A DNA stretch of 46,327 nt, from positions 1-46,327 of IMG/VR virus record IMGVR_UViG_3300020152_000031. One strand, written 5' to 3'. Made by a program: the position numbers and the translations under genes. Positions 2,625-43,958 of this stretch are shown piece by piece (the first letter of the stretch is position 1; each line of letters starts with the position of its first letter). This stretch comes from a virus. Below the pieces are notes generated by a model, which did no database searches, had not been told where the DNA came from, and was given only the letters and a program-made list of their open reading frames with translations.

Positions 2625-2968
2625 ACGATAGTTGCTAAATACTCCTCGACGCTCTTCCCTTCGGCCAGGGCGCCTATCAGGCCATGCATGTAGAGCAACC
2701 ACGTAGGCATGTATGAGCCGGTATCTTCCGGGTCTGGATTTTCGTCCGGCCAGAACTCCACCTTCCCCACGGCCTGCCATGCGGCGGGGTCGAGGAGTAT
2801 TGAAGCGACAGACACAGAGTGGACTGAAGCACCAACAGTACGGAGGTTGCTGAAACGAGCGAGCGGCTCTTCTGTCCTATCCACAAGCCCTAAGAACTCC
2901 CAATGGCCCTTCTTCCATCCGCCTTCCAATGCCCTCTCGATAAAGCGTTGTGTTGCGGAAAGCCTCAT
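2621..2968 (-). CDS. hypothetical protein
   Basis: 115-aa ORF with ATGA overlaps on both sides. Confidence 0.55.
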   Translation of the reverse strand: MRLSATQRFIERALEGGWKKGHWEFLGLVDRTEEPLARFSNLRTVGASVHSVSVASILLDPAAWQAVGKVEFWPDENPDPEDTGSYMPTWLLYMHGLIGALAEGKSVEEYLATIV

Positions 2969-3288
2969 ATACCGTCGACTGCTACACCTCGTAATCCGTT
3001 CTCATCGAACCGTGTCACCTGCACAGTCATCTCGTGCGCGTATCCTTCGCACTTCACGGTCCAATAGATTGGTTCGCCGTTCCATCCGAGTGTCATCATC
3101 TCGTATTCTCCCTCGTCGTTGCACTCTTCGCACTGAGCGCCTTCAACCACGCGAAGGGTTCGCATATCGACGATGACGTTGCCGAGTTCAACTTCAACGT
3201 CTCCGGTTGCTTCTACAGGAATACCCTCGGTCTCTTGGGGCTCTCCGTAGTCTTCTGGGGTGCGGTCTGGGTCGTAGTTCATAATCAT
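2965..3288 (-). CDS. hypothetical acidic protein, first gene of a minus-strand operon
   Basis: 107-aa ORF preceded by the conserved leader ...aaacaaacacaATG. Confidence 0.6.
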   Translation of the reverse strand: MIMNYDPDRTPEDYGEPQETEGIPVEATGDVEVELGNVIVDMRTLRVVEGAQCEECNDEGEYEMMTLGWNGEPIYWTVKCEGYAHEMTVQVTRFDENGLRGVAVDGI

Positions 3289-3346
3289 TGTGTTTGTTTA
3301 CTTGTATACCTAGTATACCATACTCACCCCCAGTCAACAACCAGCC

Positions 3347-32353: not shown

Positions 32354-35300
32354 ATGACACCCGAAGACTACATCCTCCAGGTCAAAGAGAAGTTCGGCAC
32401 GCAGACCACGCGTGACGGCCAGCTCATCCGCGACATGAACGACCGTGCGCTGTTGAAGCGCATGATAGCTCGCTACCCAGACGATGCCACGAACATTGTC
32501 GGTCTTGACGCATACCTTTCTGAAGAGGAGCGCCAGAAGCTACCGCCCCAGCCAGATAACCCTGTTACCAAGGCTATTGGTGACGCGTATAAACGCGTGT
32601 CTGAGCGTGTTGGTGCCAAGGTCCAGGGCGAATGGCTCGGTGCGTTTGAGCAGGGACGAGAAGCAGTCGCTCGCGGTGCAGAGCGCTTTGCAGAGGGTGA
32701 TGGCACGTCTGTTGAAGGCCAGGTAGATAAGACCGGTGCCCTTCTTGAATCCGGCCTTGGTGTCGCGTCCGCAGGTGTACGTGGCCTCTTCGCTCCGCTT
32801 ACCGCAGTCATCCAGGAGACCATTGAGACCGCATCTGATGACCCGAACGTACAGAAGGCTGCGACGAGCAAGCCAGTAGGAGAGACCCTCGACACACTCG
32901 AGTGGGCTTCTGAGCCTGTCCGTGAGTGGGCAAAGGCAAACCCAGATGCCGCACGTAACCTCGTCGATGCCTTCACCGTTGCTACCGCTGGTGTGGGAGA
33001 AGGTGCTACAGGAACCCTCGGTGCTACACGCGTGGGTGCTCTTAGCCGTACGGTTGCTGATGAGGCAGTCGGTGCTGCTCGTGCAGGAACTCGTGTCGCA
33101 ACAGAGACCGTCACTGGTGCTGTTGATGATGCTACCCGCGCCGCACGCGAGCTTGCCGCTAAGAAGCGTGAAGAGCTCCAGAGCAAGGCAGTCGATGAGC
33201 TTGAGGCGACGTACGAGGAAATCCTCACCGGTACCGTATCTAAGAACAAGAAGTTCGACCGCTCACAGAGCGCAGCGCGCAACAAGAACAAGGCCGGTAC
33301 TGAGGGTCAGCCACCGCAGCGCATCCTTGCTGAGCAGGGCATCATCCCTAATCAGGAGGGTTCTCGTTTCCGCACGACGGACCAGGCTGAAGTCCTGCGT
33401 CGTAAAATCGCACCGCTTCGTGAGGCTAACCGCCGCGCACTCCGCGAGGTCCAGCAGTCCACTGACCCGGCAGACCTCTATGTCATCGAGGAGATGGCTA
33501 AGAAGATGGCCCAGAACTCTGACAACGTGAACGCGGGTACAGCAAAGGACCTCGTCAAAGAAATCGAGCAGGAGTTCGCAAACCTTCGTGAGCAGTACGG
33601 TGACACTGTGGTCCTTACGACCGCCGACGACATCAAGAGCGCACGTTGGGGCCAGACGAAGTTTGATAGCACTCGTCCGTTCCGTGGCGATGGCAACTAC
33701 CTCATCGGTAAGTCCTTCCAGCAGTACATCGAGGACGCAGCACGTGGCGCTGGCTTCGAGGACGTTGCACAGCTCAACCGCGTCATCGGTGACCGCCTTG
33801 AGGCAGCTCGAACGCTTCAGAGCCTCGATGGTCAAACGGTGAAGGGCGGACGCCTCGGTCGCTACATGGCCCGCATCAGCGGCGGTATCCTTGGCGCGCC
33901 AGGCGGCACGCTCGGCTCTATCCTCGGTATGGCAGGCGGTGACATGGTCGCTAACATCCTTATCTCCAACTCAGTTGCTGGTCCGGTGAAGCGCCTCATC
34001 TTGAAGGGCATGCAGGAGAGCAACCCAGTTGCATACGACCGCGCAGTGAAGTGGCTCGAGGATAAGGGCCTTGAGCGCGACATGCAGCTCCGCTTGCCTG
34101 CGGGTGACCCAAGCATCTCACCACTCAACAATGGTCTTCCTATCCAGGTAGCACCGGCTGGAGCTCGCATCGAGTACACCGGTCCTGGAGTGGTGGCTAC
34201 GGCCGGTCCGTCTGGTGTTGCTAAGACGGCTGCGCAGATGACCAAGGCAAACGGTGGCATCACCATTACGAAGAAGGGGGACATTCCTGAGGATGGTTTT
34301 GCGTTCGCGCCCCGCAAGGATACTGAGCGCATCATCCCGGCTGACCGATTCTCTGACAAGGACATAGATTCCTACATGCAGGAGTTCGACGAGGTCCTTG
34401 CGATGCCTGGAGCGCACTTCGGTTCGTGGGTAGACGATGGCAAGGTGTACATGGACGTCTCCATCGTCGCCAAGGACTTCAACGAAGCTATGCGCTTGGC
34501 GGAGGAGGCTGACCAGCTTGCGGTATTTGACTTATCAGCGTTCGAGACGCATTATCTAAATGATTATGAAAAGTCTAGTGGCTCTTATACCCGCCGAGGG
34601 GAAAACTCGGGAACAGCTCAAGAAGGAGATGCTAACGCAGCTCCGGGAGAAGGGCGTCCTGAAGGACCAGAAGGCGGAGCAGCCGTCATCCAAGAAGAAG
34701 TAATAGAGCCCGAGGGTTTTAGCTCGGGAGCTGTCCCTCAAACAGCACTCTCGCGAGACCCCTCACTCTCTGGAGAAGCCGCAGAGGTCCAGGAGCGCTC
34801 TATTGCTAAGTACGAAGCCGACCCGGAAGGGATGGTGGAGACGTACCTGGCTGATAACGGCAACGTCGTGAACACCGACGAGGCCCGCAAGTACTTCACT
34901 GACGTTGGCTATCGTGGCAGCAACTCTGCTGCGGTCCACAGCGCGTCTAAGGCTATTGCTACACGTGCGTTCAACGAGCTTCTGAGCAAATCAGAGCCGG
35001 GTCAGCATGTGTACTTCATGGCTGGTGGCTCAGGCGCGGGCAAGTCTACAGCGACCAAGGTGCTTGAGGAGGAGATGCGCAAGGCGGCCATGGTCGTCGA
35101 CGGCAACCTCTCTAAGTACGATTCAGCACGCAAGCAGATAAAGCAGGTAGAGGATGCGGGTCTCAATGTGACGATTCCGTACGTCTTCCGTGAGCCACGC
35201 GATGCCTGGGTCAACGGTGTCATCAAGCGCATGCTCGACCCTGAGCACCCAGACTTTGGCCGCGTTGTTCCGCTCAAGACATTCATTGAGAATACGACAG

Positions 35301-35557
35301 GAGCCCTTGACGTCGTACGTCGCCTGGCGAGCGAGGGTATCCCGTACGTGGGCTTCAAGAAGATGCCAGGTGAGATAGATACGCCCATCTCTATGGATGA
35401 GCTCAAGGAGCTTTCTATCCCGGTCGACATTGAGAACAAGCTCATTCAGGAGACTGAACGGCTTGCTCGAGACGGTGCCTTCACAAAGGAGCAGTACGAC
35501 GAGCTTCTTCGTGGCCTACCGCACACCGAGTTCGACGACTTGCAGAAAGCGCAATAG
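32354..35557 (+). CDS. large polyvalent virion protein candidate with a C-terminal zeta-toxin-like P-loop kinase domain
   Basis: 1067 aa. The Walker A HVYFMAGGSGAGKSTATKVL lies at about 35018-35050, followed by VVDGNL and a nucleotide-kinase-like remainder. Confidence 0.5.
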   Translation: MTPEDYILQVKEKFGTQTTRDGQLIRDMNDRALLKRMIARYPDDATNIVGLDAYLSEEERQKLPPQPDNPVTKAIGDAYKRVSERVGAKVQGEWLGAFEQGREAVARGAERFAEGDGTSVEGQVDKTGALLESGLGVASAGVRGLFAPLTAVIQETIETASDDPNVQKAATSKPVGETLDTLEWASEPVREWAKANPDAARNLVDAFTVATAGVGEGATGTLGATRVGALSRTVADEAVGAARAGTRVATETVTGAVDDATRAARELAAKKREELQSKAVDELEATYEEILTGTVSKNKKFDRSQSAARNKNKAGTEGQPPQRILAEQGIIPNQEGSRFRTTDQAEVLRRKIAPLREANRRALREVQQSTDPADLYVIEEMAKKMAQNSDNVNAGTAKDLVKEIEQEFANLREQYGDTVVLTTADDIKSARWGQTKFDSTRPFRGDGNYLIGKSFQQYIEDAARGAGFEDVAQLNRVIGDRLEAARTLQSLDGQTVKGGRLGRYMARISGGILGAPGGTLGSILGMAGGDMVANILISNSVAGPVKRLILKGMQESNPVAYDRAVKWLEDKGLERDMQLRLPAGDPSISPLNNGLPIQVAPAGARIEYTGPGVVATAGPSGVAKTAAQMTKANGGITITKKGDIPEDGFAFAPRKDTERIIPADRFSDKDIDSYMQEFDEVLAMPGAHFGSWVDDGKVYMDVSIVAKDFNEAMRLAEEADQLAVFDLSAFETHYLNDYEKSSGSYTRRGENSGTAQEGDANAAPGEGRPEGPEGGAAVIQEEVIEPEGFSSGAVPQTALSRDPSLSGEAAEVQERSIAKYEADPEGMVETYLADNGNVVNTDEARKYFTDVGYRGSNSAAVHSASKAIATRAFNELLSKSEPGQHVYFMAGGSGAGKSTATKVLEEEMRKAAMVVDGNLSKYDSARKQIKQVEDAGLNVTIPYVFREPRDAWVNGVIKRMLDPEHPDFGRVVPLKTFIENTTGALDVVRRLASEGIPYVGFKKMPGEIDTPISMDELKELSIPVDIENKLIQETERLARDGAFTKEQYDELLRGLPHTEFDDLQKAQ

Positions 35558-35788: not shown

Positions 35789-36352
35789 ATGGCATACCGC
35801 TCTCTCGCCCAGCGAGGCATCCAGGCAGGCCCTCAGAGCTCCAAAATGGGCCTTAGCGGCTCTGTAGAGGACGTAATGAAGGGAATCGCTTATGTGGAGA
35901 CACGAGGCGCTCCTGACGCATATTCAAAGAAAGGGGTCGTGGTCAGCAAGGGCATGTACGCCGGAGACCGCGCGCTCGGCAAATACCAGGTCATGGGGAA
36001 GAACGTAGGACCCTGGACCAAGCAGTATCTGGGTGTCGAGATGACCCCGGAGCAGTTTATTGCAAACCCAGAAGCGCAGGAGAAACTGGCCCGTGCCCGC
36101 ATGAGCGAGCTGTTGCAGCAGTACGGCACCCCAGAAGACGTCGCCTCGGTCTGGTTTACCGGTAGGCCGCTTGCTAAGGCCGGTGGCTCGCCTCAAGACG
36201 ATACTGGTACCAGCAACAATGAGTACCAGGAGCTATTCAAAATCGGCATGGCAGGTCAGGGTGGCGCGGGCTCACAGGTGCGCCCAGCTATCGCAACCGC
36301 ACGTGGCGGCGGCGGATATATCCCTCTTGCTCAGCGCGGATACACCGCTTAG
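35789..36352 (+). CDS. lytic transglycosylase (SLT domain)
   Basis: GIAYVETRGAPDAYS...ALGKYQVM follows the E-S/T...GxxQ catalytic pattern of SLT family enzymes. TATAAT-N6-ATG lies upstream. Confidence 0.65.
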   Translation: MAYRSLAQRGIQAGPQSSKMGLSGSVEDVMKGIAYVETRGAPDAYSKKGVVVSKGMYAGDRALGKYQVMGKNVGPWTKQYLGVEMTPEQFIANPEAQEKLARARMSELLQQYGTPEDVASVWFTGRPLAKAGGSPQDDTGTSNNEYQELFKIGMAGQGGAGSQVRPAIATARGGGGYIPLAQRGYTA

Positions 36353-36840: not shown

Positions 36841-37881
36841 ATGATAGACGAAGACCTTATCGCTCCCGGGTCTGCCTTGCCCGACAACCGACCAGAAGAG
36901 GCACGTAAGAACGATTACAAGGACGAGGAAGTAATGCCGCCAGCAGGCGCAGGGGAAGTCGTACCCTTCAAGAACAAGCGTATTACCAAACTCACTGCCA
37001 CGGTCTTCAACCAGTGGTATGTAGGCTCATGTGTGCCGCACGGTTTCCTGACTGCGCTCGAGTACGAGGGAATCATTACCAAGGACGAGCTCAAGTCCCA
37101 GCTCCGCGCATACCGTAAGCGCAGCAACTACCCTGGAGAGGGCAGTATCGCCGTGGATATGTGGGACAAGATTCGTGGCGGCGTATCTCCGCTTGCAGAT
37201 GCTCCGACCAAGGAACGCATGACCGAGGCCCAGGCAGCAGCTATGCCTCTCGTGCTTGGTGACCCGGTGCTCAAGGACCGTTTCAACTATTACAACATCA
37301 CGGATTACAACCGTATCCCCGAGTACGTTGCTGCGGGTAAGGCTATCCCTGTTTTCTTCTACGCGACCAAGTCCGAGTGGTCTCGCGAGTACGTGCGCCT
37401 CATAGAGCCGAACCTCAACATCCATGATGCGTACGTGCGCCACTGCATCACTCTCGTGCCTAAGGGAGACTTCACCGAGGACGGTATCAAGTATCTAACC
37501 GTCCATGACAGTGCTGCGTTCGGTAACCGCCACCTACGCTACATGCCGCTCGACTTCTTGCTCAAGCGTTGTTACTACGCGGGCCGTGCAGAATCTAAGC
37601 AGCCGCCTGTCCCGGTAGAGCCGCCTGTCGTTGACCGTATCCCGGACGTGGCATGCAAGCTCAATGACCGGGGAGAGGCCGTGCTCGCGCTTCAGCGGTT
37701 CCTCTTTGATGACGGAAAACTCGCAGCACAGCACGTCACAGGCTTCTATGGTCCACTTACTGCAAAAGCAGTACTGTGGTACCAGCTCTCACGGTGGCAG
37801 AAGTTCAAGAGCACTATCCCTGAGCTCCTCGAGCTAAAGGGTGAGAGCTGGGGGCCGCAGTCTATCAACTCGCTAACGTAA
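36841..37881 (+). CDS. endolysin: papain-like Cys peptidase with a C-terminal peptidoglycan-binding domain
   Basis: NQWYVGSCVPHG has the Q-x5-C spacing seen in papain. VRHCITLV and YLTVHDSAAFGN are His/Asx-like motifs. The C-terminal GEAVLALQRFL...DGKL...TGFYGPLTAKAVLWYQ resembles PG_binding_1. TACAAT-N6-ATG lies upstream. Confidence 0.6.
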   Translation: MIDEDLIAPGSALPDNRPEEARKNDYKDEEVMPPAGAGEVVPFKNKRITKLTATVFNQWYVGSCVPHGFLTALEYEGIITKDELKSQLRAYRKRSNYPGEGSIAVDMWDKIRGGVSPLADAPTKERMTEAQAAAMPLVLGDPVLKDRFNYYNITDYNRIPEYVAAGKAIPVFFYATKSEWSREYVRLIEPNLNIHDAYVRHCITLVPKGDFTEDGIKYLTVHDSAAFGNRHLRYMPLDFLLKRCYYAGRAESKQPPVPVEPPVVDRIPDVACKLNDRGEAVLALQRFLFDDGKLAAQHVTGFYGPLTAKAVLWYQLSRWQKFKSTIPELLELKGESWGPQSINSLT

Positions 37882-37885
37882 CCAC

Positions 37886-38203
37886 ATGATTACTGAACTC
37901 ACATTGTCGGCAGTGGCCGTCGCGTTCGCTATCAACGTGCTTACCTCGCTCCTCAAGCGCTGGGTATACCCACAGTTTGGTCCGCTTGGCGTGCAGGTGG
38001 TGTGTTTCGTGCTCGCCCTTATCGGCGCATGGTTCTGGCTCTACGGCCGCTTCGTGCCTGAAATTGGCAGCCTCGTCGTATCGGCCCTTGGTCTCTTCTC
38101 ACTCGCAGTGACCATGTACGAGGTTCTTCTCTCGAAGCTCGACTTCTTCAAGGTGAAGACCCCACAGGTGCTCGACGCACGCGAGACGTACCGCGACGCA
38201 TAA
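37886..38203 (+). CDS. holin candidate with 3 TM segments
   Basis: 105 aa with three hydrophobic segments and a charged C-terminus, directly after the endolysin. Confidence 0.55.
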   Translation: MITELTLSAVAVAFAINVLTSLLKRWVYPQFGPLGVQVVCFVLALIGAWFWLYGRFVPEIGSLVVSALGLFSLAVTMYEVLLSKLDFFKVKTPQVLDARETYRDA

Positions 38204-38575: not shown

Positions 38576-38752
38576 GCAGTCCTCCCTTGCTATTCCTATT
38601 TTAGTGTAACTCCTTGTTTGTCGCGTGTGATTCTCCACGGTAAAAACCCAGAGCCAGAAGCTCCTCGTCGGTGTGCTCGCATATCCACATCTGCACGTAC
38701 CTTCCAGTTACGAAGTGCCCCTTCTCACATTCGTTGTATGTGTGAGCCACGG

Positions 38753-38820
38753 CACCCCGCCTAGGAATTGAACCTAGCAAGCTCGGTTTTGGAGACCAAG
38801 CCGTACCCAGTACGCGAGGT
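38753..38820 (-). tRNA. tRNA-Trp(CCA)-like element with a truncated D-arm
   Basis: Acceptor ACCTCGC/GCGGGGT, anticodon arm TTGGT-CTCCAAA-ACCGA, and T-arm CTAGG-TTCAATT-CCTAG. Only 14 nt lie between the acceptor and anticodon stems, so the total is 68 nt. Confidence 0.45.
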
Positions 38821-38821
38821 T

Positions 38822-38896
38822 TGGCAGCCACGGCAGGATTCGGACCTGCGACCCTCCGGGTAACAACCGGGCGCTCTACCGCTGAGCTACATGGCT
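38822..38896 (-). tRNA. tRNA-Asn(GTT) with an encoded CCA
   Basis: Cloverleaf folded by hand: AGCCATG TA GCTC-AGCGGTA-GAGC G CCCGG-TTGTTAC-CCGGA GGGTC GCAGG-TCCGAAT-CCTGC CGTGGCT G CCA. Confidence 0.8.
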
Positions 38897-39061
38897 ATAT
38901 TACGAAAGTAACTATCCCGTTAGGGAGACTGAATCGCTTGGCGGAGCCTATACACCACGCGTCCGTGATGGAAGATACCAACGATTCAGTTCCCTAGGCG
39001 CAGTGTTTCCACACTCCAGGGGAGAATTACTCCCCCTAACGAGACAGTACTTGTATTCTTG
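38897..39061 (-). ncRNA. structured spacer RNA of unknown function between the tmRNA and tRNA-Asn
   Basis: There is a long imperfect stem TAGGGAACTGAATCGTTGG / CCAAGCGATTCAGTCTCCCTA and an inner hairpin CATCAC-ggacgc-GTGGTG. A 5' hairpin GGGGAG-taatt-CTCCCC can alternatively pair with CTCCCTAACG (as CGTTAGGGGGAG). Confidence 0.35.
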
Positions 39062-39425
39062 TGGACCTGGGGGGAATCGAACCCCCGTCCCAACACCAGC
39101 CCTACAACCACTCTACATAGCATATCTGACGTACCGCGTCAGCTCGTGTTGCTTGCCGAGCAAGCTGCCCTGCCCATCGTTTGACGATGAAGGCGGGCGG
39201 GTACACCTCCACCAACTGCTAGTGATGCCGCAGTCTGGGATACCAGCAGTATCTGTCCCAGGCCACGCCGTTAGGCTCGCGCGAAAGCAGGGGTTCCGAG
39301 GGAACCAACTGTCGCGAAGAACGGAGAGACGATGCTCTTTGCGTTTGTTTGTGCGACCATCTGTATGTCGCCTCAGTAGCTATGCAGGCTGTAAGGTTCT
39401 AGTGAGGTCAAAGCCAGTCAGGCCC
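39062..39425 (-). ncRNA. ssrA: tmRNA (SsrA)
   Basis: The 5' end GGGCCTGACTGGCTTTGAC pairs with the 3' end CAGGTCC-A, including a G3:U70 wobble. The T-arm is GGGGG-TTCGATT-CCCCC. The candidate tag ORF runs from GCA (39354) after GUC to TAA (39273-39271) and reads AQTNAKSIVSPFFATVGSLGTPAFARA. Confidence 0.8.
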
Positions 39426-39426
39426 G

Positions 39427-39498
39427 TTGCGCAGACCGGAATCGAACCGGTTATCTCCTGGTTATGAGCCAGGCGAGTTACCATCCCTCACCCGCGCT
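39427..39498 (-). tRNA. tRNA-Met(CAT) with initiator-like features
   Basis: AGCGCGG GT GAGG-GATGGTA-ACTC G CCTGG-CTCATAA-CCAGG AGATA ACCGG-TTCGATT-CCGGT CTGCGCA A. It has an A1:A72 mismatch, an A11:U24 pair, and G30-C40 / G31-C39 pairs. Confidence 0.75.
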
Positions 39499-39536
39499 TT
39501 TTTTAGTATACCATCGCACTTTTTACGTTATCCACA
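39499..39536 (-). promoter_or_regulatory. internal promoter candidate for the tRNA-Met / tmRNA transcript (TATACT at 39505-39510, 6 nt before the tRNA 5' end), with an exact box at 39528-39536 in the opposite orientation
   Basis: The minus strand reads TGTGGATAAC gtaaaaagtgcgatgg TATACT aaaaaa followed by the tRNA. Confidence 0.4.
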
Positions 39537-39540
39537 TCTG

Positions 39541-39611
39541 CTGGGACGCAGGGATTCGGACCCCGATTCAGCGGTCCAGAACCGCTTGTCCTACCATTAG
39601 ACGACATCCCA
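39541..39611 (-). tRNA. tRNA-Gln(CTG)
   Basis: TGGGATG TC GTCT-AATGGTA-GGAC A AGCGG-TTCTGGA-CCGCT GAAT CGGGG-TCCGAAT-CCCTG CGTCCCA G. It has a U1:A72 pair, as in bacterial tRNA-Gln. Confidence 0.8.
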
Positions 39612-39615
39612 ATAT

Positions 39616-40011
39616 CTATCGCAGCAACTCGTTGTGCATGCGTGCGACAATTCTATACACATCTCGTGCTTCTTCAAGCGACCGTAGTTCACCTGTGTGG
39701 TACTCATGCCCGAGCTCACGACTGATACGAGCGTATGCCTTCCCGCGTGGCATCCGTCCTGATTCCCACAATGGGTCTAGGAGCGCGTGTATTGCCTTGC
39801 GTGCCTTTAGAAGTTCTGGAGTGGCGATACACCCTAGCGGCCGTGTAGGCTTGCTTGTCTTCCAGTGGCACCCGACATAATTGCCGCATCCATCGCACCT
39901 CCAAAACGGAATGTCATAGAGGTCTGGCCTGTGCGGGTATCGTTCCTTGCCGTTTGTCAGTCGTGCAGAGACGGTAGTGTTGCACCCAACGCAGTAGATA
40001 TCTCTCGTCAT
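39616..40011 (-). CDS. DUF3268-like zinc-finger protein
   Basis: YCVGCNTTVSARLTNGKERYPHRPDLYDIPFWRCDGCGNYVGCH...PLGCIATPELLKARKAIHALLDPLW matches the common phage Zn-finger family pattern. Confidence 0.6.
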   Translation of the reverse strand: MTRDIYCVGCNTTVSARLTNGKERYPHRPDLYDIPFWRCDGCGNYVGCHWKTSKPTRPLGCIATPELLKARKAIHALLDPLWESGRMPRGKAYARISRELGHEYHTGELRSLEEARDVYRIVARMHNELLR

Positions 40012-42258: not shown

Positions 42259-42921
42259 CTAATTCTCTTTGATGAATATGCTGGTTGCAGCATCGTAAAT
42301 AATGCGGCTCGGGATAGAGCGGTTCTGCATCAGAATCTTCTTGACGTTGTTCGCCATGAGACCTGCACAGATGTTTGCAGTGTACGCCGTGAAGCGTGCG
42401 CCGCACGGGTCCTCATCCCCAGCCGGTGGAATCTGAGCAAGCCATGCCTCTGCGTTAGGGAAGTAATACACCTCCACCTGCTCTGCGCCCACGCGCCCAT
42501 CCACAATCGGCACTTCTATGCCTTTCTCAATAAGAAGCTCTGCAATCGCGCGGCGTGCATCCAGGCTATCAACTGCCGACACGATGATGTCGTACGTGCT
42601 GCCCTCCTTGAGCTCAAACATTTCAGCGTAGACCGCGTGTGCGTTGTCAGGCTGAATGTGTAAGAGTTGGTCGAGCACCGCATCTACCTTGTTACGTCCG
42701 ATGTCAGATGCGCCATAGGTCTGTGTTGCGAGGTTATGCTCCTCGACCGTGTCGTGGTCGAAAAGTGTCATGGGTACCTGCATGCGTGCCAAGGTGTGTG
42801 CAAGGTGGGAACCGATGGTTCCGACACCTACCACTGCGACCTTCTTGTTCTGGTACTGTGACGGGTCGTAAATCATTGTGTGGCGCATGCCGTTGAGAGG
42901 TTTGACGAGAGAAGTAGACAT
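42259..42921 (-). CDS. ThiF/MoeB/E1-like adenylating (ubiquitin-activating-like) enzyme
   Basis: Trimmed to the ATG with the conserved leader (aaacacaatATG; MSTSLVKPL...). The motifs are KKVAVVGVGTIGSHLA, LFDHDTVEEHNLATQ and VSAVDSLDARR. Confidence 0.75.
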   Translation of the reverse strand: MSTSLVKPLNGMRHTMIYDPSQYQNKKVAVVGVGTIGSHLAHTLARMQVPMTLFDHDTVEEHNLATQTYGASDIGRNKVDAVLDQLLHIQPDNAHAVYAEMFELKEGSTYDIIVSAVDSLDARRAIAELLIEKGIEVPIVDGRVGAEQVEVYYFPNAEAWLAQIPPAGDEDPCGARFTAYTANICAGLMANNVKKILMQNRSIPSRIIYDAATSIFIKEN

Positions 42922-42932
42922 ATTGTGTTTGG

Positions 42933-43958
42933 TTAGTTGATTCCGTAAGTAAGTTCTGTCAGGCGCGCCTGTGCATCGACGAGTTGCTCCTTTAGCCATG
43001 AGTACTCATCGTCATCAGTGGCGTTGGTCTGCTCGTAAATGCGCATCTGTTCAGTGATGCCTGCGATGTAGCGACGTAGCTCGTTTGGGTCTGACACGGC
43101 AGACAGGTCATACGTATCAACGATTACGTCGTCGTTTGCCTCGTCGCTTTCGTTTGCCGTGTCGTCGAGTTTTCCCATGCGTGAGAGCTCATCCCAAGTA
43201 ATGTTGTAGCTCTTGTACCCGCTCTGGTAGATGATGTAGGGGTCTCCGTCTTCATCCATCGCGACCACACCACCCATGTGCTTTATAGAGGTCAGTTTGT
43301 GCCCAGGAGGAACCTCAATAGAATCAAGGTCATACCCGCTGTAAGCGCCAAACCCAAGATTAGCCTGCGGCTGGTAGGAGCTGGGAGTGTAGCGAAAGCT
43401 CTTTTGCTCTACCTTTGCCTTCACCTCCTCGCGGATGTCATCAGGAATGATGAGCGGCTTATCTTCTTCCTCCACCTCGCGATGACACGTAGGACAGAGC
43501 TCTGGCTCCGGCTCCTCGACCACGATTTCCATATCCTCGTGCGTAAGACGGAACGGGCGGTACGTATCCATACGAGCCTCGCGGTCGCGCCTCTTGTTGA
43601 CCACGAGCGACACAAGCCAGTCGAACTCGTCAGAGCCGTCGATGGTGCCGGTGTCAGTGCCAGAGAAGAACGCCTGCATGTCGTTGTGCGAGTGCCACCA
43701 GAGACGCCACTTGGAAGGAGACTTGCCCGCTTTGATAAGGTCCATCTGGAACTTTGCGAGTGCCTCACTCGAGAGGTCTGCGGTACCGCCGGTCACCTTC
43801 TGTTCGTAGATGGCAATTTCCGTGACGGTTATCTCGCCGGTCTCCTGGTTGTACTCGACGGCACCCATGCCAGCGATTTCAGAAGGGACAGACTGCACAT
43901 ACTGGTTGAGGCGCTCCTCGATGTGCTTTGGGATAATGAGTTTTGGTTTGGTAAGCAT
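42933..43958 (-). CDS. JAB/JAMM (MPN+) metalloprotease with a roughly 200-aa C-terminal extension
   Basis: PSEIAGMG is the upstream Glu motif, and WWHSHNDMQAFFSGTD matches HxHx7Sx2D. Confidence 0.8.
   Translation of the reverse strand: MLTKPKLIIPKHIEERLNQYVQSVPSEIAGMGAVEYNQETGEITVTEIAIYEQKVTGGTADLSSEALAKFQMDLIKAGKSPSKWRLWWHSHNDMQAFFSGTDTGTIDGSDEFDWLVSLVVNKRRDREARMDTYRPFRLTHEDMEIVVEEPEPELCPTCHREVEEEDKPLIIPDDIREEVKAKVEQKSFRYTPSSYQPQANLGFGAYSGYDLDSIEVPPGHKLTSIKHMGGVVAMDEDGDPYIIYQSGYKSYNITWDELSRMGKLDDTANESDEANDDVIVDTYDLSAVSDPNELRRYIAGITEQMRIYEQTNATDDDEYSWLKEQLVDAQARLTELTYGIN

Follow-up and report, generated by a model that had tools for sequence, protein, structure and literature searches.

Does a phage that carries a transfer-messenger RNA (tmRNA) use it to alter the degradation tag added to the products of stalled ribosomes, or does it carry the rescue RNA of its host? 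The question is raised by the window analyzed here, the whole 46,327-nucleotide stretch of the IMG/VR virus record IMGVR_UViG_3300020152_000031, in which a tmRNA gene (ssrA) lies in a compact island of tRNA genes. A preliminary description of this island had read a long, atypical tag from the tmRNA and suggested that its altered C-terminus could keep tagged products from host proteases or redirect them. We find instead that both ends of the tag match those of smpB-linked tmRNAs of Paceibacterota/Patescibacteria. We consider it probable that the phage carries a host-type tmRNA, which would supplement trans-translation together with the SmpB protein of the host and which would indicate a Patescibacteria (Paceibacterota-like) host.

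The first 127 nt of the window are repeated exactly as its last 127 nt, indicating that the window represents a closed genome of 46,200 bp, and the same contig was also recovered as a 46,224-nt Logan assembly from run SRR7003767. Among its genes are phage modules (small and large terminase subunits, tail-fibre proteins, a lysin and a three-helix holin-like protein) as well as NinB, RusA, an HNH nuclease and an exonuclease, while none of the sizeable open reading frames (ORFs) of the window was recognised as an integrase, repressor or excisionase. The most plausible reading is a tailed phage, present as its whole genome and without recognisable genes for lysogeny. Because the genome is closed, the tmRNA is phage-borne and not a host gene. 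We excluded a host ssrA beside a prophage, since the contig is circular and the tmRNA gene lies between phage modules; the RNA island, in our reading a self-contained operon, is found where the late/lysis genes, which run rightward, meet the early genes, which run leftward. The closed genome, its phage modules and the lack of an integrase bear out the earlier view that a phage encodes a genuine full-length tmRNA within a compact tRNA island.

The one-piece tmRNA gene is 365 nt long and occupies positions 39061 to 39425 on the minus strand, as called by ARAGORN and by the Rfam model RF00023. The covariance model accepted the tmRNA fold at 56.4 bits (gathering threshold 47, E 1.4e-19) over all of its positions (1-374 of 374), and neither program changed the reading frame. 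As described previously, the molecule has the G3:U70 pair: the 5' end, GGGCCUG, pairs with CAGGUCC, which is followed by the discriminator A, while CCA is not encoded (ACAA). When joined, the two ends fold into a 7-bp acceptor stem, a 5-bp T arm and helix 2 (-51.7 kcal/mol, z -3.2), with a T arm of GGGGG-UUCGAUU-CCCCC, and the bracket structure drawn by ARAGORN is concordant. The core hairpin of pseudoknot 1 (PK1), GCGAC-AUACAGAUG-GUCGC, was placed by sequence and folding at 39353 to 39371 (minus strand), with positions 39371-39367 paired to 39357-39353, in the same register as the PK1 of cellular relatives. A candidate second stem, CUG/CAG, has only 3 bp. Further downstream we noted a plausible PK2 by eye (CUGGGA/UCCCAG with ACUGCU/AGCAGU) and several hairpins. 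No smpB gene was present in the six-frame translation of the phage genome, and the tmRNA would therefore need the SmpB of the host. In the explanation that we favor, and that we judge likely as a whole, this is a full-length, one-piece, host-type molecule carried by the phage.

The point at which translation resumes had to be revised. The preliminary description placed the resume codon directly after GUC, at GCA 39354-39352, and obtained a tag of 27 residues beginning AQTN. These bases form the final two pairs in the stem of PK1, GCGAC/GUCGC, and ARAGORN, the Rfam alignment and the related tmRNAs all place the resume codon 12 nt further downstream, giving 23 codons. It is GCA 39342-39340, called by ARAGORN and aligned by Rfam with high posterior probability. 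In the phage, GUCGC is followed by the 10-nt ACAAACAAAC and then GCA, and in 11 related cellular tmRNAs 10-12 A-rich nt separate the 3' strand of PK1 from GCN. From the resume codon to the Ser-Pro codons UCUCC(G/A), the phage and two cellular tmRNAs described below, L158 and L312, have equal spacing. The two candidate starts share one frame, and the AFARA end of the tag, with the ARA terminus reported earlier, is the same for both.

The tag frame thus runs from GCA 39342-39340 to TAA 39273-39271 (39271 to 39342, minus strand; ARAGORN and Rfam alignment) and encodes AKSIVSPFFATVGSLGTPAFARA, which is 23 codons plus TAA, ends in PAFARA and is colinear with the tags of L158 and L312. It was not recognised in ARAGORN's own list of tags. 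The frame is backed by conservation of the peptide with synonymous changes in comparison with both relatives. At the N-terminus, the phage and L312 agree in nine of nine residues (AKSIVSPFF) while using different codons for seven of them, and the AFARA end and stop are common to the phage and L158, where all four differences are synonymous. Retention of the peptide while the nucleotides diverge is what would be expected from selection on a translated, host-compatible tag. Between these ends the frame contains a perfect hairpin, GGUUCC-CUC-GGAACC (39292 to 39306, minus strand; sequence and fold), whose 6-bp stem and loop encode VGSLGT; this insert is missing from the four closest cellular tmRNAs aligned. 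A search of 2.9 million IMG/VR contigs with three tag patterns for this tag type (AKSIVSPFF...AFARA) gave 115 matches, none of them in a tmRNA, and the exact 5' 19-mer of the phage tmRNA had no match in IMG/VR.

Where does such a tag occur in cells? The 3' 20-mer of the tmRNA was found at 95 sites in 185,579 species genomes, 64 of which lie in named metagenome-assembled genomes (MAGs) of the candidate phyla radiation (CPR)/Patescibacteria, mostly in tRNA-Ala genes that have this acceptor and T arm in common with the phage tmRNA. One of these loci, in a MAG titled Candidatus Paceibacterota (L057), happened to contain a tmRNA as well, with the tag AKTAFGKVVSPYFTVGDFVFARA (...KVVSPYF). A metagenome scan with a pattern built from the phage and L057 tags returned 12 further tmRNA loci, among which two pairs have identical tags, leaving ten distinct tags, all of the form ...SPYF...FARA. 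Examples are AKSVVSPYFGASQFAFARA (L158, start AKSVVSPYF) and AKSNIARAKSVVSPYFGANDFAFAFARA. In four loci (L057, L135, L176 and L158) the tmRNA lies directly 3' of smpB, with ftsH next door in three of the four, marking these tmRNAs as cellular genes. Relatives of the L158 SmpB number in the thousands, and the taxon-named matches listed are all from Paceibacterota, Pacebacteria, Taylorbacteria or the 'Patescibacteria group', bar one labelled only 'bacterium'.

A second route, in which tmRNAs were fetched through SmpB proteins related to that of L158, is independent of any tag pattern. It yielded AKSSVSPYFGAKDFQFALV (L311, L314 and L315), AKSIVSPFFGVKDFQFALV (L312, from Candidatus Pacebacteria GCA_028713005.1, start AKSIVSPFF), AKSSVSPYFGAKDFAFALV (L318, on an 876-kb contig), AKSSVSPYFGEKDFAFALV (L317) and AKVQSPYFGARDFAFALV (L316). 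Tags found by this route start AKSSVSPYFG... (AKSSVSPYF in L311, L314, L317 and L318), AKSIVSPFFG... or AKVQSPYFG... and end ...FALV, and the tmRNAs are 364-366 nt long, compared with 365 nt in the phage. In total the FALV end was seen at seven loci with six distinct tags and the FARA end in twelve cellular examples; AFARA followed by the stop is common to the phage, 11 distinct metagenomic tmRNAs and one named Paceibacterota MAG. Even among close relatives, whose SmpB proteins are about 78% identical, some tags end in FAFARA and others in FALV. ARAGORN missed the L316 tmRNA (2945-3330) outright and mis-called the tags of L317 (2951-3315) and L178; manual reading gave AKVQSPYFGARDFAFALV for L316, AKSSVSPYFGEKDFAFALV for L317 and AKQTAVAQVSPYFTADNFQFAFARA for L178. 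Synteny is conserved in these Paceibacterota-type genomes: in the sublineage resembling L158 (L311, L312, L314, L317 and L318), infC-rpmI-rplT are followed in order by a PLD-like gene, smpB and ssrA, with ftsH a few kb further on at most, and in L057, L135 and L176 ftsH is right beside smpB-ssrA. This neighborhood gives only a hint as to which protease reads the CPR tag.

We define the tag family here by a start A-[KN] that contains [VKA]-S-P-[YF]-F, an end F-A-[FL]-A-R-A or F-A-L-V, and a gene located directly 3' of smpB. The phage tmRNA has such a start and such an end and lies between two phage tRNAs, away from any smpB; it would work like a family member and is not a cellular orthologue in situ. 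Judged by its peptide sequence, the phage tag belongs to this Paceibacterota (Parcubacteria, CPR) family and is not a phage oddity, and by the same comparison native tags of the probable host clade end in either FARA or FALV, the first of which gives the ARA terminus. The cellular genes share with the phage tmRNA their size, the start AKS[SI]VSP[YF]F, the spacing between PK1 and the resume codon and the G3:U70 pair and, in one sublineage, the AFARA end. They differ in the acceptor stem (GGGGAUG, in contrast to GGGCCUG in the phage) and in base composition (38-52% GC as opposed to 58%), and the phage molecule is set apart by its compact PK1, the 9-residue hairpin-encoded insert, the absence of an adjacent smpB and low nucleotide similarity outside the tRNA-like domain and the tag.

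Three independent features, the tag, the acceptor/T arm and T-loops with C at position 55, point to Patescibacteria, and on this sequence evidence a CPR bacterium is the probable host of the phage. The acceptor/T arm has 31 nt identical to CPR tRNA-Ala genes and about 30 nt identical to a Microgenomates tmRNA. The C55 T-loop UCCGAAU, noted in the preliminary description for both tRNA-Asn and tRNA-Gln of the island, is upheld by the Rfam alignments. We found C55 in 6 of 149 tRNAs at named CPR loci, in 2 of 20 from unnamed MAGs and in none of about 86 controls, which is a small control set. The cellular C55 tRNAs are of the Arg, Ala and Pro types with the T-loop GGGTCCGATTCCC (L018, L027, L031, L054 and L101 in CPR genomes; L040 and L063). 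C55 may be a recurrent CPR trait that could relate to loss of TruB. Two features of the phage genome also fit such a host. No spanin pair was seen beside the lysin and holin genes, as would suit a host without an outer membrane, and the terminase is only 28% identical to its nearest match among 50,697 GenBank phages, as would suit an uncultured host lineage.

Several observations weigh against the explanation that we favor, the host assignment included. The phage has 55% GC, compared with 37-53% at the cellular loci with this tag, and a GC content above that of the host is rare in phages. A link to a CPR genome was not found through CRISPR spacers, prophages or tRNA identity. The segment ATVGSLGTP in the center of the tag was found in the phage only and coincides with the perfect hairpin. 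PK1 is reduced to a hairpin with a possible 3-bp stem, PK3 and PK4 look like plain hairpins, and the Rfam score is just 9 bits over the threshold. A family hidden Markov model (HMM) scored the phage tmRNA at 33.7 bits, below a Microgenomates tmRNA. As the nucleotide HMM fails to place the phage tmRNA in the cellular family, the link rests on the peptide and the structural register. Finally, there is a precedent in phage Melnitz, whose tmRNA has been argued to match a former host and not the current one (PMC9004378).

The Melnitz case bears on an alternative that we regard as rather unlikely, in which the host is not a CPR bacterium and the tmRNA stems from a former host or from horizontal transfer, or the host belongs to an unsampled phylum of higher GC content with the same type of tag. 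The GC difference and the failure to find a direct host link speak for it, as do the Phage_holin_3_3 holin in a relative with a 75%-identical lysin and the bias of the tag-pattern searches to AT-rich codons. It would nevertheless have to account for the independent agreement of the tag, the CPR tRNA-Ala-like acceptor/T arm and the C55 T-loops, as well as for the missing spanins beside the lysin and holin and the low identity of the terminase to those of cultured phages, which fit a host without an outer membrane from an uncultured lineage. A different doubt concerns function: the tmRNA might not be used in trans-translation at all and might act as a decoy or inhibitor, for example by titrating SmpB, or be a decaying relic. 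The low Rfam score (56 bits for a threshold of 47), the compact PK1, the replacement of some pseudoknots by hairpins and the divergence of the nucleotide sequence from every cellular relative could be taken this way, and a tmRNA of phage DS6A that consists only of the tRNA-like domain has been suggested to titrate SmpB (PMC4131195). We consider this improbable, since the full length is kept (365 nt, with 364-366 nt in the closest cellular relatives), the tag frame is open with host-identical ends despite many synonymous changes, and the resume-codon register, the G3:U70 pair, the T arm and helix 2 are intact; a relic or a pure SmpB sponge would have no need to conserve the peptide.

The same conservation speaks against the proposal from which we started, that the phage has altered the C-terminus to ARA in place of LAA/VAA so as to rescue ribosomes without delivering products to host proteases, or to redirect them. 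The ARA end does differ from model-bacterial tags, and the phage-specific center ATVGSLGTP could change adaptor binding. With AFARA and a stop being the native end of smpB-linked cellular tmRNAs in the probable host clade, evasion or redirection loses its premise, and we find the idea unsupported and very unlikely. Maintenance of the AFARA end through synonymous changes is as expected under purifying selection for a host degron, the opposite of evasion, and argues that tagged products are meant for host recognition. It is also scarcely credible that the tmRNA gene is an attP mimic for a host ssrA or tRNA-Ala gene or host DNA acquired by imprecise excision. While ssrA and tRNA genes are classic integration sites and the 3' 31 nt are identical to many CPR tRNA-Ala 3' ends, no integrase, excisionase or repressor was detected in sizeable ORFs, the gene is complete and not a 3' fragment, it lies in a tRNA operon distant from recombination genes, and its base composition has converged on that of the phage (58% GC). 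In addition, the contigs that carry relatives of the lysin are all 55 kb or shorter, which is the size of phages and not of chromosomal prophages.

We therefore return to a host-type tmRNA that supplements trans-translation and consider how it would work. Going by the consensus promoter and terminator matches, one or two precursor transcripts would cover the island. Cuts made by RNase P at the 5' ends, together with 3' trimming, would release the mature RNAs from the tRNA precursor; where spacers are 0-2 nt, the 5' cut would also free the 3' end of the upstream gene, and CCA would be added where it is not encoded. The alanyl-tRNA synthetase of the host would charge the phage tmRNA through its G3:U70 pair and host SmpB would bind it. 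This complex would enter ribosomes stalled on broken or non-stop mRNAs, and translation would resume at GCA 39342, appending a host-type degron that sends the products to the usual tag-reading proteases of the host. The phage tmRNA would in this way supplement host trans-translation, and such a boost in rescue could help the phage once host ssrA transcription stops in cells with few ribosomes. Luef and colleagues reportedly found in 2015 that CPR cells hold only tens of ribosomes.

The island around the tmRNA is real: ARAGORN called all five genes, and Rfam supports the tmRNA and tRNA-Asn, tRNA-Gln and tRNA-Met. The gene order given earlier stands, with the correction that all genes are on the minus strand, in the order Gln, Met(CAU), tmRNA, spacer, Asn and Trp (ARAGORN). 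tRNA-Gln(CUG) lies at 39540 to 39611 (minus strand; ARAGORN; Rfam tRNA model, 53.2 bits) and has U1:A72, G73 and the C55 T-loop UCCGAAU. It is followed after 41 nt by a tRNA with a CAU anticodon at 39426 to 39498 (minus strand; ARAGORN; Rfam 43.5 bits over 39497-39428), in which CCA is not encoded. This tRNA is of the elongator type (G1:C72), making it tRNA-Met or possibly tRNA-Ile2, and has one acceptor/T-stem irregularity while still scoring above the Rfam threshold. Between it and the tmRNA, ARAGORN leaves 0 nt and Rfam 2 nt past the discriminator, where 1 nt had been given previously; the other 1-nt spacing, between Asn and Trp, was correct. The tmRNA and tRNA-Asn are separated by 164 nt (165 nt had been reported).

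tRNA-Asn(GUU) at 38822 to 38896 (minus strand; ARAGORN; Rfam 63.4 bits) encodes its CCA and has the C55 T-loop UCCGAAU. The last gene, at 38751 to 38820 (minus strand; ARAGORN), is a non-canonical tRNA-Trp(CCA) with a reduced D arm, an 8-bp anticodon stem and G73. It falls below every Rfam tRNA threshold, the best match being tRNA-Sec (24.2 bits, E 0.038), and yet folds as a cloverleaf with a D arm of 4 bp and 3 nt (minimum free energy -28.7 kcal/mol, z -2.75), so that the label 'tRNA-Trp-like' used earlier is a fair one. By the standard of a canonical RF00005 tRNA, the Trp element stays under the threshold, and the Asn and Gln tRNAs exceed it but carry C55. The array Ile-Met-Asn-Trp-Thr of Ochrobactrum phage ORM_20 (L189, OX359470.1 30277-30733) has the same Met-Asn-Trp order, but we rejected it as a relative of the island because the resemblance is generic tRNA similarity, with a normal U55 and D arm; in the window, the tmRNA and the spacer sit between Met and Asn. 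No close or distant DNA relative of the island beyond generic tRNA similarity was found in GenBank phages.

Putative transcription signals, all of them consensus matches only, surround these genes on the minus strand. A promoter-like site, TTGAAG-16-TAGAAT, is located upstream of tRNA-Gln (39650 to 39677), and a second, TGGATA-18-TATACT with a TG extension, lies 7 nt 5' of tRNA-Met (39505 to 39534), where by its consensus match it would be sensibly placed for a separate Met-tmRNA-Asn-Trp transcript. The number of promoter-like sites found was not above the expectation from shuffled sequence. A terminator-like hairpin with a U tract is found about 90 nt 3' of the last tRNA (38650 to 38664). The phage strongly prefers CAG (387, compared with 42 CAA) and AAC (401, compared with 55 AAT), while CAA and AAT are used at least as often at the cellular loci with this tag. 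tRNA-Gln(CUG) and tRNA-Asn(GUU) fit the CAG/AAC preference of the phage, a case of classical codon compensation.

The spacer between the tmRNA and tRNA-Asn (38897 to 39060, minus strand) is predicted to form a 164-nt structured RNA with a closing helix of about 25 bp and two internal hairpins. Its minimum free energy is -73.4 kcal/mol (z -6.7), and 0 of 200 shuffled sequences were as stable. It matched no Rfam family, contained no tRNA according to ARAGORN even with introns allowed, and had no relative in IMG/VR. The modeled fold could serve in processing, as a stem of the RNase III type, or belong to a stable small RNA of the phage. The tRNA cluster of phage T4 contains the stable RNAs rnaC and rnaD, which are co-transcribed with it.

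Several features of the surrounding genome were also noted. Relatives of the flanking DUF3268 gene in IMG/VR occur in four unrelated phages with no RNA genes. In the lysis region, a transglycosylase-like protein of 187 aa (35789-36352, plus strand) precedes a 346-aa lysin with a Cys-peptidase-like N-terminus (36841-37881, plus strand), whose relatives carry PG_binding_1, and the three-helix holin-like protein follows 3' of the lysin (37886-38203, plus strand). The lysin has 127 related proteins, all on phage-sized contigs of 55 kb or less, and no tRNA or tmRNA was seen in the five genomic contexts of its relatives that we inspected; one relative, with 75% identity (L245), belongs to a second phage in the same sample. 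A ThiF/E1-like protein (42259-42999, minus strand; PF00899, E 1e-24) is encoded some 3 kb upstream of the RNA genes and is overlapped by a larger ORF (42933-43958, minus strand) with a weak JAB-deubiquitinase-like match; read from these domain matches, of which the JAB one is weak, the two are a candidate ubiquitin-like conjugation pair in a phage. A 1067-aa protein (32354-35557, plus strand), presumably of the virion, has a weak Pfam match to a Zeta_toxin-like P-loop kinase near its C-terminus. TGA is rare as a stop codon despite 55% GC and abundant TGA trinucleotides: 28 confident ORFs end in TAA (15), TAG (12) or TGA (1), and a crude set of 55 ORFs gave TAA/TAG/TGA counts of 23/22/10. Stop-codon recoding was considered and rejected, as reading TGA as sense merges nothing meaningful.

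The role of phage-borne tmRNAs is not yet settled, and next to nothing is known of how phages use the tiny translation apparatus of CPR/Patescibacteria. If the host link holds, the window provides a concrete case of a small phage investing in ribosome rescue. The tag peptide, the acceptor arm and the C55 T-loops would then offer a marker for assigning uncultured phages to CPR hosts; such links are usually drawn from CRISPR spacers, and most members of the CPR have no CRISPR. It would also mean that a CPR degradation tag family has been described, with FAFARA/FALV ends and with ftsH near smpB-ssrA in most of the loci examined, and this family puts the focus on the protease that reads the tag in reduced genomes. 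In a bolder and more tentative version, to which we give somewhat less than even weight, this is the first recognised Paceibacterota phage with the rescue RNA of its host, rescue limits yield in cells with few ribosomes, the tag and C55 are host markers and the spacer represents a new class of small RNA. Were it true that ribosomes are few and rescue limits phage yield, even a 46-kb phage would gain from a tmRNA under its own promoter. Our analysis also corrects the attractive but unsupported idea of a phage-re-engineered degron. What makes the window of interest is above all its link to a CPR host, together with the tag family of the CPR and the structured spacer.

Phage tmRNAs were first listed for Bxz1-type mycobacteriophages and Bacillus phage G (PMC4131195), and tmRNA has been found in 402 of 18,146 phage genomes, or 2.3% (PMC9004378). 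Like the window, the Bxz1/Catera/Rizal cluster and phage G have a complete ssrA in or beside a tRNA cluster, no smpB and tags longer than in model bacteria (PMC4131195, PMC9004378). The window differs from them in its tag type, AKSIVSPFF...AFARA, and in the CPR host that we propose, and its genome of 46.2 kb contrasts with those of the known carriers, which are mostly large myoviruses or jumbo phages. We recovered a Bxz1-type tmRNA with the tag ATDTDATVTDAEIEAFFAEEAAALV from IMG/VR (L009). Viral tmRNAs with the same T-arm/acceptor 3' end were also seen there (L006, L007, L008, L009, L011 and L013); two of these are permuted, and one, with the tag DTNIGDIDAEYEALCADAQLVAA, is on a contig of 60 kb.

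In OM43 phage Melnitz and the pelagimyophages, as in the window, a complete tmRNA is found in a non-temperate phage; its phylogeny has been used to trace host history, and upkeep of the hijacked translation machinery or protein tagging has been proposed as its role (PMC9004378). Unlike the tmRNA of the window, which is one-piece and has no riboswitch match in Rfam, theirs are two-piece (permuted) and coupled to a glutamine riboswitch (PMC9004378). The T4 tRNA cluster resembles the window in its tightly packed tRNAs, presumably on one precursor, with an extra structured non-tRNA RNA, in the window a putative one, inside; there is no sequence or Rfam relationship between the two. A parallel for the tag itself may be drawn with the Mollicutes, whose long ssrA tags ending in ...YAFA were reportedly found by Gur and Sauer in 2008 to be read by Lon and not ClpXP. 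These tags share with the CPR FAFARA/FAFALV tags their length (19-28 residues), an aromatic/Ala-rich end other than LAA and an occurrence in reduced genomes; the two are not homologous, and the likeness is an analogy only. We found no paper on tmRNA in Patescibacteria phages or on the CPR tag family. Phage tmRNAs as such were already known, and what is added here is the CPR host link and the description of the CPR tag family.

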